Shown here: positions 6,789 to 10,342 of the stretch, piece after piece
Layout: every line of letters begins with the position of its first letter
How positions within the stretch are numbered: the stretch's first letter is position 1
Translations under genes and position numbers: made by a program
Notes under the pieces: model-generated
What the model was told of the DNA's origin: nothing
What the model saw: the letters and a program-made list of their open reading frames with translations, nothing else
The model's database searches: none
NCBI RefSeq assembly: GCF_009931435.1
Contig: NZ_CP043414.1
Direction: 5' to 3' (one strand)
DNA: 64,000 nucleotides
Origin: Escherichia coli
GTDB lineage: Bacteria; Pseudomonadota; Gammaproteobacteria; Enterobacterales; Enterobacteriaceae

Positions 6789-6843
6789 GGTGGATCAGGC
6801 TAGCGGACCGATCGCGCTCAATTTTGCGGCTTGAAACCGGTTT

Positions 6844-7079
6844 GTAGGACGGATAAGGCGTTCAAGCTGCATCTGGCGATACGGTGCACAATGCCTGATG
6901 CGACGCTGTCGCGTCTTATCATGCCTACGAGTTCTATGCTCTGTGTAGGACGGATAAGGCGTTCACGCCGCATCCGGCGGTTGTGTGTGGATGCCTGATG
7001 CGACGCTGTCGCGTCTTATCATGCCTACGAGTTCAATGCCCTGTGTAGGCCAGATAAGGCGTTTACGCCGCATCCGGCA
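6844..7079. repeat. BIME cluster of five REP units in alternating orientation
   Basis: GTAGGACGGATAAGGCGTTCA..GCATC.GGCG and its inverted partner GCCTGATGCGACGCTGTCGCGTCTTATCATGCCTAC recur with ~100-bp periodicity (units start near 6844, 6893, 6946, 6993, 7045). Confidence 0.8.
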
Positions 7080-7102
7080 CGCAAACGTAATGGAATGCAC
7101 AA

Positions 7103-7411
7103 ATGGATTATTTAATTCCAGTTTGTCTGGCATTGCTGGGATTGCTCGCGATCTTCACCCCCAATTGGCTGATCCCTGTTTTTATCGTCGTGGGGGGATG
7201 GCTGGGGGTACTTGCCTGGGGTTGGCTCTGGCTAATGATTTTTTTACCTTTACTTAACGGTGTCGGGCTTGCTTATGCCCTGTGGTTGATGTTCAAAAGG
7301 CCATCCATAGCATCCCGCCTGGTTGCTGCATGCTGTGTTATCTCCGTCATTCTGATGTTAGCGCTTTATTATGCTTTCCTGACTATGCCGCCGTTCCCGC
7401 CTCAGCACTAA
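7103..7411 (+). CDS. hypothetical small membrane protein (102 aa, about 3 predicted TM segments), unnamed
   Basis: ORF with strongly hydrophobic, Trp/Leu-rich, CTG-biased coding; weak GGAA upstream of ATG; followed by a 10-bp-stem hairpin; no match recalled to a named K-12 gene. Confidence 0.45.
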   Translation: MDYLIPVCLALLGLLAIFTPNWLIPVFIVVGGWLGVLAWGWLWLMIFLPLLNGVGLAYALWLMFKRPSIASRLVAACCVISVILMLALYYAFLTMPPFPPQH

Positions 7412-7436
7412 GCCTGATAGCCAGAGGCTATCAGGC
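7412..7436. terminator. bidirectional hairpin between the 102-aa ORF and convergent zntA
   Basis: GCCTGATAGC-CAGAG-GCTATCAGGC, perfect 10-bp stem, flanked by T-rich sequence on the + strand and lying 8 bp downstream of the zntA stop. Confidence 0.6.
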
Positions 7437-7443
7437 AACACTT

Positions 7444-9642
7444 TTACTTCCTGCGCAACAATCTTAACGCATTCGCTGTTACCAGCACCGTCGCACCCGT
7501 ATCTGCCAGCACCGCCAGCCATAGTCCGGTCATCCCTAACAGCGTTGTGACGAGGAAGATCCCTTTCAGCCCCAGCGCAATGGTGATGTTCTGGCGGATG
7601 TTGGCGTGAGTGGCGCGTGCCAGTTCAATCATCTGCGCCAGGCCGCGCAGGTGGTTATGGGTTAATGCTGCGTCGGCGGTTTCCAGCGCCACATCTGTGC
7701 CACTGCCCATTGCAATTCCTATGGCGGCAGCTTTCATGGCGGGCGCGTCGTTAATACCGTCACCGACCATCGCCAGAGGCGCATGTTGATTCAGCTCGGT
7801 CACCGCTTTGACTTTATCTTCTGGTAATAGGCCCGCTTTAAATTCCAGCCCCAGTTCACCGGCGATTGCCGCCGCTGCGCGTGGATTATCGCCAGTGAGG
7901 ATCACCCCTTTGACACCCAGGGCGCTCAGTTCGCTGATGGCAGTTGCGGCGTCGGCGCGCAGGGTATCCTGCAATGCAATTACGCCAAGCACGTCATCGT
8001 TACGCACCACCAGTACTACCGTTTGCCCGGCGCTTTCCAGTTCGTTAATTAAACCAGCAAATGCAACAGCCGGATGTTTTCCGGCAGCGCATATCAACAC
8101 GCGCTCGCCGTTAATCAGTGCTTCAATACCAGACCCGACCAGCGCCCGCTGTGATTCGGCGGCGGGAATGGCGAGTTCAGCAACCTGTGCTTCGCGTACG
8201 ATGGCTTGCGCCAATGGATGCGTCGCGCCTTGCTCGACCGCCGCTGCCAGTGTCAGCAGTTCAGATTCACTAATACCCGTTGCCGGATGAATCGCGGTAA
8301 CGCGCGGTTTACCGACGGTCAGCGTACCGGTTTTATCAAACGCCACCTGGGTAACACGACCTAGTTGTTCCAGCGCCGCACCGCCTTTAATCAACGCCCC
8401 ACGACGCGCTGCGGCTGCCAGCCCGGAGGTGATCGCCGCAGGTGTTGAGATCACCAGCGCACACGGGCAGCCAATCAGCAGCAGCGTCAGCCCTTTATAA
8501 ATCCACTCCTGCCAGCTTGCGGCAAACAGCAGCGGCGGCACCAGCGTCACCAGCAGGGCGACGGCCATAATCGCTGGCGTGTAAATACGGCTGAAACGGT
8601 CGATAAACCGCTCAATCGGTGCGCGGCGCTCTTCAGCTTCTTCGATCAGTTTCAGAATCCGGTCAATGGCGCTGGCACCCGGTTCTGACAGCACTTCCAG
8701 CGTTACCAGACGGTCTACGCTGGTGGCGCCTGCAGGAACTTTATCACCCGTCGCGCGTTCCACCGGAATGGATTCGCCGGTCAGGGCGCTTTCATCAAAA
8801 CTGGCAAAGGGCGAGAGCAGTTTACCGTCGGCAGGTAAACGCCCACCTGCCGCAACTTCGATAACATCGCCCGGACGCAGGCTGTTAATTGCTACCTCTT
8901 CACGCTTGCCATTACGCAGGCGCGTGGCGGTTTCCGGTTTCAGCGCCATTAACGCGCTGACCCCTTGACGCGCGCGGCTGGCGGCCCAGCCTTCCAGTCG
9001 TTCACCAATCAAAAACAGCAGCAACACCATCGCAGCTTCAGCCGTTGCGCCAATAAACAGCGCACCAATAGCGGCTACGCTCATTAAGGTTTCAATAGCG
9101 AAGTAGCTGCCGGATTTGATCAGCCGTAATGCCTGACGAGCAATCGGGTACAGCCCAACCAGCGTGGTCGCGATAAACGCCAGTTGACCGAACGGATGAT
9201 TAAACTGCTCCAGACCCCAGCTGATTGCCATCAACACGATTAGCGTAATCAGCGGCAGATTCTCTTTCAGGCGTGATTCTTGTTGTTCGTCGGCGGACTG
9301 TTCATCGCGCAGGGAATAGCCCGCTTTTTGCACCGCAGATTCAACTTGTGCACGGATGTCATTGTCGGCATCAACCACCAGTTTTTCGGTGGCGAACAGC
9401 ACCTGCACCTGATTCACGCCTGCAAGCTGGCGCACGGCATTTTCTACCTTGCGCGCGCAGGCGGCGCAGTCCATGCCGCTGACTTTCCAGCTATAGCGGG
9501 TGCCGGAGACGTTTTCAGAGAGCGTTGGCGTGCTGGAACATGCGCCGTCGCAGCAACAGTCGTTGACGTTCTGTACCGTGGTTAGCGGTTTGAACGCAGA
9601 AAATTGAGGGGCTTTCTTGCCGTGATTGTCAGGAGTCGACAT
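7444..9642 (-). CDS. zntA: Zn/Cd/Pb-exporting P-type ATPase ZntA
   Basis: 732-aa ORF with N-terminal metal-binding GMDCAAC, CPC motif and DKTGTLT phosphorylation motif. Confidence 0.95.
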   Translation of the reverse strand: MSTPDNHGKKAPQFSAFKPLTTVQNVNDCCCDGACSSTPTLSENVSGTRYSWKVSGMDCAACARKVENAVRQLAGVNQVQVLFATEKLVVDADNDIRAQVESAVQKAGYSLRDEQSADEQQESRLKENLPLITLIVLMAISWGLEQFNHPFGQLAFIATTLVGLYPIARQALRLIKSGSYFAIETLMSVAAIGALFIGATAEAAMVLLLFLIGERLEGWAASRARQGVSALMALKPETATRLRNGKREEVAINSLRPGDVIEVAAGGRLPADGKLLSPFASFDESALTGESIPVERATGDKVPAGATSVDRLVTLEVLSEPGASAIDRILKLIEEAEERRAPIERFIDRFSRIYTPAIMAVALLVTLVPPLLFAASWQEWIYKGLTLLLIGCPCALVISTPAAITSGLAAAARRGALIKGGAALEQLGRVTQVAFDKTGTLTVGKPRVTAIHPATGISESELLTLAAAVEQGATHPLAQAIVREAQVAELAIPAAESQRALVGSGIEALINGERVLICAAGKHPAVAFAGLINELESAGQTVVLVVRNDDVLGVIALQDTLRADAATAISELSALGVKGVILTGDNPRAAAAIAGELGLEFKAGLLPEDKVKAVTELNQHAPLAMVGDGINDAPAMKAAAIGIAMGSGTDVALETADAALTHNHLRGLAQMIELARATHANIRQNITIALGLKGIFLVTTLLGMTGLWLAVLADTGATVLVTANALRLLRRK

Positions 9643-9677
9643 GGCATCCTCCGGTTAAGTTTTTTCTCATTAACCGA

Positions 9678-9709
9678 AGGATACACTCTGGAGTCGACTC
9701 CAGAGTCAA
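9678..9709 (-). promoter_or_regulatory. zntA promoter with ZntR (MerR-type) operator
   Basis: On the minus strand: -35 TTGACT, 20-bp spacer containing the perfect dyad ACTCTGGAGTC-GACTCCAGAGT (9685-9706), -10 TATCCT; the long spacer is the MerR-family hallmark. Confidence 0.85.
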
Positions 9710-9715
9710 GTTTTA

Positions 9716-10342
9716 TCAGAGATACAGCGAGCGGACGATGAGGAAATGTCCGGCAAAATAACAAGCGGCGGCAATCGCGTTATCCGCACGGAAGCGTCGG
9801 CGATAGTGGCTACCCAGCCAGACAAAGTTACTGATAAACAGCAACGAAGCGCCGACAAATGCAGAAAGTGCCGGAGCGGTTGGACGGAAGAACCACAGTT
9901 CACCTGCCAGCCATACCATCACCAGCGTCATGCCGATAAACGTGCAGATAGGCCAACGATACTCTTCCAGACGCGTCCAGATAATCGCCAGTAACAGCGC
10001 GCCCAGAACCAGCAATACCAGTGGCAGAGGCCAGAAGAAAGAGAGCGTCATCTGACTGGCGAAATAGATGGTGTAAAGCAGGTGCGAGAGGAAAAACGCG
10101 CCGATGGCGTACATCAGACGTTGACGTGGCAACAGGGTTAGCGCATCGCCCAGCAGTGAGGCGCACAGCCCCGCCAGCACCAGATAGCTAATGGCGTCGA
10201 ACATCGGCGCTTGCCATGCCAGTAACAGCAGGAGAAGAAGGGTTAACGGTTTAAACACCCAGCGTTGCCAGGTTGGCCCACGATACGATGCATCCACAGA
10301 TAGCCATGCGGAAAGACAGACTGCGATAAACGACCAAAGCAT
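9716..10342 (-). CDS. yhhN: YhhN-family membrane protein (lysoplasmalogenase-like)
   Basis: 208-aa polytopic membrane ORF matching YhhN; immediately upstream of zntA. Confidence 0.85.

Follow-up and report, generated by a model that had tools for sequence, protein, structure and literature searches.

The 64,000-nt stretch of Escherichia coli DNA analysed here (the window) contains the junction between yhhN and zntA, where the promoter of zntA (PzntA) and its ZntR operator follow directly on the end of yhhN. ZntA is the main exporter of zinc, cadmium and lead. ZntR, which senses very low levels of free zinc, is regarded as the only control on ZntA synthesis; translation leaking from transcripts of the upstream gene would weaken this control. 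We propose, with a probability of about 0.55, that read-through from yhhN is tolerated in transcription, silenced in translation and then ended by Rho. To a more specific proposal, based on folding models, we give roughly even odds: the −10 hexamer and discriminator of this MerR-type promoter may double as an anti-Shine-Dalgarno (anti-SD) sequence, forming a promoter-embedded translational insulator that is kept with different sequences in Enterobacteriaceae, Pantoea and Erwinia and leaves read-through RNA untranslated and cleared by Rho.

Predicted fold of the yhhN–zntA junction

The features of the junction, in window coordinates and with the source of each in brackets, are:
10342–9716, minus strand: yhhN coding sequence, 208 amino acids (aa), PF07947 family, annotated as a lysoplasmalogenase (open reading frame (ORF) list, RefSeq annotation)
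9718–9716, minus strand: yhhN stop codon, TGA (ORF list and sequence)
9715–9710, minus strand: 6-nt gap, TAAAAC, from the yhhN stop to the −35 hexamer (sequence)
9709–9704, minus strand: PzntA −35 hexamer, TTGACT (sequence, published architecture)
9685–9706, no strand: ZntR operator, perfect 11+11 palindrome ACTCTGGAGTC/GACTCCAGAGT with zero spacer (repeat search)
9683–9678, minus strand: PzntA −10 hexamer, TATCCT, which also makes up the outer portion of the 5′ arm in hairpin 2 (sequence, fold)
9684–9670, minus strand: 5′ arm of predicted hairpin 2, GUAUCCUUCGGUUAA, consisting of the −10 hexamer and discriminator (repeat search, fold)
9669–9674, minus strand: inferred zntA transcription start, with +1 expected near 9671, 7 nt past the −10 hexamer (σ70 promoter geometry)
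9658–9644, minus strand: 3′ arm of predicted hairpin 2, UUAACCGGAGGAUGC, holding the zntA SD sequence GGAGG at 9652–9648 (fold)
9642–7444, minus strand: zntA coding sequence, 732 aa, Zn/Cd/Pb P-type ATPase, start codon 9642–9640 (ORF list, annotation)
9448–9662, minus strand: C-rich, G-poor start of zntA, ending near the published Rho position (composition)

When the gene-strand RNA spanning the junction is folded, two hairpins are predicted side by side, with a minimum free energy of −37.8 kcal/mol (z = −4.4 relative to shuffled sequences). Hairpin 1 is the operator palindrome as it would appear in read-through RNA, a predicted 9-bp stem with the loop UCGA. Hairpin 2 is a predicted 15-bp stem in which GUAUCCUUCGGUUAA pairs with UUAACCGGAGGAUGC, and the zntA SD, 5 nt ahead of the AUG, lies inside it. 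Because the −10 hexamer is not transcribed from PzntA, the full hairpin 2 would form only in RNA begun upstream, i.e., in yhhN read-through RNA. Judging from ribosome footprint sizes, a ribosome terminating on yhhN would reach no further than the foot of hairpin 1, leaving hairpin 2 uncovered.

To quantify occlusion of the ribosome-binding site (RBS), we calculated the energy needed to open positions −15 to +6 around the zntA start, a measure that replaced the mean unpaired probability of the SD, which was too noisy; the folding ignores co-transcriptional folding and RNA-binding proteins. Since the +1 position follows from promoter geometry, the 5′ end was scanned. RBS opening costs 5.9–6.5 kcal/mol if the RNA begins at 9674–9668 (4–10 nt past the −10 hexamer) and 19–24 kcal/mol if it begins at 9684 or anywhere further upstream, the full 700-nt yhhN leader included; the conclusion on occlusion does not change with the choice of 5′ end within 9674–9668. 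When 48 ORFs of the window that do not overlap and are at least 150 aa long are treated with the same geometry, zntA ranks first both in long-context occlusion (21.4 kcal/mol; median 6.7, 95th percentile 12.7) and in the difference between long and short contexts (14.9; median 1.1). A scan of the junction against Rfam 15 matched no family, the sole hit being a chance microRNA at 19.7 bits (gathering threshold 90, E = 0.42).

The 73-bp yhhN–zntA intergenic region (9643–9715), with about 30 bp on each side, is identical to that of E. coli K-12 MG1655, and the promoter itself is therefore already known. By this identity, the element in the window is the characterised PzntA, dependent on the MerR-family regulator ZntR, and shows no difference from K-12 PzntA in its −35 hexamer TTGACT, 20-bp spacer, dyad operator, −10 hexamer TATCCT or downstream Zn/Cd/Pb ATPase gene. 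The architecture of −35 TTGACT, 20-bp spacer and ZntR dyad is as summarised in PMC3431237 and PMC7911910, both citing Brocklehurst 1999 and Outten 1999, and ZntR binding and Zn(II)-dependent activation are likewise taken from such accounts of the identical K-12 sequence. The perfect palindrome, the K-12 identity and the published architecture bear out an earlier reading made from the sequence alone (the sequence-only reading), which had identified the zntA promoter and ZntR operator in an interval, 9678–9718, that runs exactly from the −10 hexamer through the yhhN stop codon. That reading had also, correctly, described the two genes as co-directional on the minus strand (ORFs 10342..9716 and 9642..7444) and put the −35 hexamer (9704–9709) "7 bp" past the stop, where TTGACT begins at the seventh base, after 6 nt.

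The 20-bp spacer that separates the −35 hexamer from the −10 hexamer is over-long, as are the 19–20-bp spacers of promoters activated by MerR-family regulators, and a standard σ70 scan (16–18 bp spacer) misses PzntA, as expected. The ZntR palindrome spans this spacer and the 3′ half of the −35 hexamer and is the longest perfect palindrome in the window, with about 0.015 expected by chance. The yhhN–zntA junction, so annotated, is present in 5425 of 5426 complete E. coli genomes, and in 5351 of those 5425 it is at least 99% identical over 111 nt. Flanking coding DNA (9560–9800) is 95–96% identical to most E. coli, with a best match of 98.8% in a goat isolate; an intergenic region identical to K-12 between flanks that have diverged by about 4–5% points to strong purifying selection on the junction. 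The YhhN protein is 100% identical to that of MG1655, and homologous zntA loci encode Pfam HMA, E1-E2 ATPase and hydrolase domains. In the searchable literature we found no account of what becomes of read-through RNA or of PzntA lying 6 nt past the yhhN stop, and no paper describing such an RBS-occluding structure for zntA.

Two further observations concern the sequence around zntA. The operator core GTCGACTCC (9690–9698) is directly repeated on the minus strand at 9632–9640, where it comprises the last base of the start codon and zntA codons 2–4 (ATG TCG ACT CC); this would allow base pairing between the operator's left half and the beginning of the coding sequence. In Kluyvera, where the repeat is 13 nt long (GTCGACTCCAGAG), hairpin 2 is enclosed by it in the predicted read-through fold. 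The repeat could be a chance result of the conserved MSTP N-terminus or could form a second layer of occlusion. Downstream, the gap between zntA and tusA (6789–7443) is 655 bp long here and 101 bp in MG1655, and contains a 102-aa hydrophobic ORF (7103–7411) and REP (repetitive extragenic palindromic)-type repeats. Only 264 of 5426 E. coli genomes contain the segment in full, annotated "hypothetical protein"; the median copy number of its repeat part is 21 per genome.

Transcription across the junction and into zntA

A consensus scan of the gene strand over 9643–9715 found no intrinsic terminator-like site, and both junction hairpins lack a U tract. The sequence-only reading had likewise seen no terminator between yhhN and the promoter, and had concluded that yhhN read-through transcripts would cross the operator. 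Published Term-seq and bicyclomycin data support this conclusion: in the available text of the supplement to Adams et al. 2021 (PMC7815308), which may be incomplete, no Term-seq 3′ end is given for 3606300–3606599 (MG1655 coordinates) and none is assigned to the yhhN end or the zntA leader, so that clear termination ahead of the zntA promoter is not seen in these 3′-end data.

The same supplement lists a Rho region at 3606645, which corresponds to zntA +195 and window position 9448, with reads upstream/downstream of 142/43 in untreated cells versus 201/212 with bicyclomycin (Rho score 3.48, p = 8e-11; PMC7815308). The Rho score is based on 800-nt intervals, and the upstream interval consists mostly of yhhN, indicating that polymerases do cross the junction. 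Because bicyclomycin removes the drop in coverage, the loss on entry into zntA depends on Rho rather than on an intrinsic terminator. The ratio of C to G is 1.3–1.6 from zntA −20 to about +180 and below 1 beyond, a moderate bias that makes this segment a candidate rut (Rho utilization)-like RNA. The pattern resembles the Rho-dependent premature termination and polarity described in PMC7815308, in that here too a bicyclomycin-sensitive drop lies inside the gene with moderately C-rich, G-poor RNA upstream of it. The supplement tabulates the 3606645 site without analysing it, whereas a link to an SD-occluding read-through structure is suggested here. Both the predicted burial of the RBS in read-through RNA and the predicted stop by Rho early in zntA had been left out of the sequence-only reading.

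Other candidate or reported ends lie nearby. In the antisense direction, on the plus strand (9685–9716), a terminator-like score is given by the operator palindrome together with the CAAGTTTTAT that follows it. This T-run is the context of the yhhN stop and is not kept in Citrobacter, Enterobacter or Kluyvera, so we rejected this site as probably due to chance. The supplement also gives an antisense Rho region inside zntA at 3607955, and a Term-seq 3′ end at MG1655 3605771 (window 10322), 20 nt into the yhhN ORF, that has a Rho score of 0.89 and an intrinsic-terminator score of 2.48 and is assigned to neither type (PMC7815308). The latter may result from processing or may mark a point of attenuation that holds down yhhN expression.

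Comparison of zntA leaders

The gene yhhN lies directly before zntA in Citrobacter, Enterobacter, Kluyvera, Pluralibacter, Cronobacter, Pantoea, Erwinia, Photorhabdus and Arsenophonus. A contig scan with ZntA was dominated by the generic P-type ATPase motif and yielded only 4 useful enteric loci; YhhN homologues, contig look-ups and a metagenome scan with the operator pattern were used instead. The metagenome scan, from which the E. coli-type −10 hexamer was excluded on purpose, added 120 loci, about 85 of which have the yhhN–operator–zntA arrangement; their taxonomic labels come from YhhN similarity alone. In all, 55 unique junctions from Enterobacteriaceae, Pantoea and Erwinia were obtained.

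In every one of these 55 junctions the RBS is predicted to be harder to open in read-through RNA than in RNA starting at +1, with medians of 15.9 and 6.5 kcal/mol, respectively. As a longer RNA trivially pairs more, three controls were run: chimeras, duplex shuffles and the gain in ensemble energy. (i) The native upstream segment outperforms the mean cross-class chimera in 13 of 15 leader classes, the exceptions being Photorhabdus and, roughly, Arsenophonus, which have the two longest spacers (186 and 64 nt, respectively) and show no read-through-specific occlusion. Enterobacteriaceae classes share nearly the same 5′ arm, which partly confounds the chimeras, and the shuffle tests were added for this reason. 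(ii) The duplex energy of positions −14 to −1 with their own leader, compared with 1000 shuffles, gives z = −5.2 for E. coli and a combined p of 3e-8. (iii) The ensemble energy gained from the native −14 to −1 segment, compared with 300 shuffles, is significant in 14 of 15 classes, and the nine non-Enterobacteriaceae classes alone give a combined p of about 2e-9.

The leaders fall into about 15 sequence classes, several of them mutually unalignable, and in each class the base of the predicted hairpin lies in or just past the −10 hexamer and its partner lies at or inside the SD. In Pantoea, GGAUAA.GGGAUG pairs with CAUCCC.UUAUCC immediately ahead of GGAGG (GGAUAAUGGGAUG with CAUCCCUUUAUCC, then GGAGG). 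In Erwinia, GAUAGGCG pairs with UGCCUAUC ahead of AGGAGG, and AGAUAA with UUAUCU ahead of GGAGG; between the Erwinia loci L086 and L150, discriminator and pairing partner change together. In a Pantoea subtype (L126), the right half of the operator plus the −10 hexamer (CUCCAGAGUGUA-GGAU) pairs with AUCCUUACACUCUGGAG. The Pantoea loci have two types of zntA leader (L085, L121 and L144 versus L106, L126 and L148), of which the short one ends in ...UUAUCC followed by GGAGG and the long one has ...CUUACACUCYGGAGG, with a copy of the operator left half beside the SD. Both types retain pairing of the −10 region, by different routes.

In an alignment of 23 Enterobacteriaceae-type sequences, 86% of cells pair in the proposed register versus 31–55% when it is slid, and RNAalifold recovers this register unprompted. 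Four helix pairs change on both sides, a count reached in 1 of 500 shuffles. Pair 4–46 runs through U.G, C-G and U-A, which fits a helix in the sense-strand RNA.

The distance from the yhhN stop to the −35 hexamer is 3–8 nt in Enterobacteriaceae-type loci and 12–20 nt in Erwiniaceae-type loci. A G+C-rich hairpin is inserted in the spacer between stop and promoter in locus L081 (40 nt), Cronobacter (39 nt) and Photorhabdus (186 nt), and the spacer of Arsenophonus is 64 nt long. When scanned, the spacer hairpins of L081 and Photorhabdus did not score as terminators. L081 (GCA_022846635.1, AP025685.1) is labelled Salmonella enterica serovar Choleraesuis. This label looks doubtful, given a YhhN only 73% identical to that of E. 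coli, a chromosome of 4.26 Mb and the distinct junction with its 40-nt spacer.

About 35 soil metagenome contigs (among L088–L200) carry the exact enterobacterial ZntR promoter/operator, TTGACT-CTGGAGTnnACTCCAGAGTG-TAnnnT, ahead of a merR-family regulator gene whose product has an N-terminus like ...QIGQVA..TGLSVDAIRFYEK. Their leaders are only 6–39 nt long and the contigs carry neither yhhN nor zntA. From these sequences, the ZntR operator appears to be conserved well beyond Enterobacterales in an autoregulatory arrangement. These merR-type operons share the identical promoter/operator with the zntA locus but differ in that the promoter drives the regulator itself, with no abutting yhhN and no hairpin from −10 to SD.

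Proposed mechanism, alternatives and known fold-back systems

In the proposed mechanism, polymerase that has transcribed yhhN continues across the operator and promoter, a step that we regard as shown. The read-through RNA would then fold, with the −10/discriminator segment GUAUCCUUCGGUUAA predicted to pair with the SD region UUAACCGGAGGAUGC, and ribosomes would be kept from starting on zntA; mRNA started under ZntR control lacks the entire 5′ arm and is predicted to have an open RBS. The untranslated, C-rich start of zntA would in turn let Rho load and terminate transcription in roughly the first 200 nt of the gene. The published data show Rho dependence, at coarse resolution, and we infer its causal link to SD occlusion. 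As a net result, ZntA protein would be made only from ZntR-licensed transcripts.

Several points weigh against this proposal. All of the structural statements rest on thermodynamic prediction, and the zntA +1 is inferred from the position of the −10 hexamer. The Enterobacteriaceae helix is mostly conserved and shows little covariation (alifold covariation term −0.27), and some of its invariant pairs join the "..CT" of the −10 hexamer to the "AG.." of the SD, each of which is conserved for other reasons. The 3′ arm in Pantoea and Erwinia often stops just 5′ of the SD, with weaker occlusion (8–20 kcal/mol). The metagenome sample is conditioned on a conserved operator, and the combined p-values are optimistic because the leader classes, drawn by eye, are related by descent. 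Finally, the 800-nt Rho intervals are coarse and cannot distinguish the terminated transcripts, their promoter or the exact site.

Some of these points would be expected if tight packing alone were responsible, with the complementarity between −10 and SD a by-product of constrained motifs (a −10 hexamer ending in CCT or GCT, the SD GGAG and the CCGG palindrome) and with yhhN weak and its read-through harmless and unselected. The low covariation within Enterobacteriaceae, the joining of invariant promoter and SD bases by pairs 8–42 and 10–41, the low yhhN read counts (142 reads per 800 nt; PMC7815308) and the many "KLEB"-type sequences with 2–3 internal mismatches, for which p is only 0.02–0.2, are all consistent with this explanation. 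However, unrelated Pantoea and Erwinia leaders keep a helix based in the −10 and discriminator (p about 2e-9 without Enterobacteriaceae), the discriminator and its partner change together between L086 and L150, and zntA is the most extreme of the 48 ORFs in the window. The soil loci, which have the same operator without an upstream yhhN, have short leaders and no such hairpin, and with their other gene arrangement and very short leaders they are weakly informative as a control. Overall, we consider packing alone unlikely. It is also quite improbable that the hairpins serve yhhN itself, with exonuclease trimming after downstream Rho termination leaving the stems as a protective 3′ end of its mRNA. 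Trimming of Rho-terminated RNAs back to stem-loops has reportedly been described by Dar and Sorek in 2018, and two very stable adjacent stems right after the stop codon, with Rho-dependent termination downstream, would suit such a role. A protective hairpin, however, needs no 3′ arm at or in the SD, yet the arm is so placed in every lineage, and the available supplement text of PMC7815308 lists no Term-seq 3′ end at the junction.

Two other explanations concern the transcript or the promoter complex as a whole. The conserved adjacency of yhhN and zntA across Enterobacterales, together with a Yersinia pestis microarray study that groups them as a co-regulated unit (PMC2231364), could indicate a working operon in which read-through supplies basal, ZntR-independent ZntA. 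This is very improbable given that the predicted occlusion of the SD is specific to read-through RNA and that coverage is lost in a Rho-dependent manner on entry into zntA; moreover, the 73 nt from stop to AUG, with two hairpins between, are ill-suited to translational coupling. The operator starts 9 bp past the yhhN stop, and a complex of apo-ZntR and RNA polymerase on it could act as a protein roadblock at the junction and so bring transcription of yhhN to an end there. MerR-type regulators do hold polymerase at the promoter in the repressed state. Nevertheless, a roadblock is extremely improbable: the available supplement text (PMC7815308) gives no 3′ end at the operator or just upstream of it, bicyclomycin alone evens the coverage across the junction, and the conserved hairpin would be left unexplained.

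If silencing of read-through RNA by RBS occlusion and Rho is correct, it would explain how the promoter can directly abut the preceding gene, with no terminator, and yet be under tight control. Co-directional neighbours with continuous RNA-seq coverage would then not necessarily form a functional operon. Metal biosensors commonly make use of PzntA fragments, and their background signal could depend on whether upstream or leader sequence is included. More broadly, an insertion-sequence (IS) device would be in use in core metal homeostasis, as a chromosomal equivalent of the fold-back inhibition of transposons.

For IS10 and IS50, fold-back inhibition of transcripts that start outside is said to have been described by Davis, Simons and Kleckner in 1985 and by Schulz and Reznikoff in 1991. 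At the left end of IS200, a terminator and an SD-sequestering stem act against "impinging transcription" (PMC4513863). As in these elements, sequence upstream of the gene's own start is predicted to pair with the RBS at zntA, and, as in the IS10/IS50 type, outside transcripts would be translationally silent and own-promoter transcripts would lack the 5′ arm. In silico, the zntA 5′ arm lies upstream of the expected +1, the SD is in the stem and own-promoter RNA is without the structure. On these models, the predicted zntA hairpin is probably a new example of a fold-back-type mechanism. It differs from IS10, IS50 and IS200 in that the gene is a chromosomal housekeeping or stress gene rather than a transposase gene, the 5′ arm is formed by a MerR-type promoter's −10 hexamer and discriminator, and there is no antisense RNA partner; in addition, IS200 has a true bidirectional terminator, which is absent at zntA.

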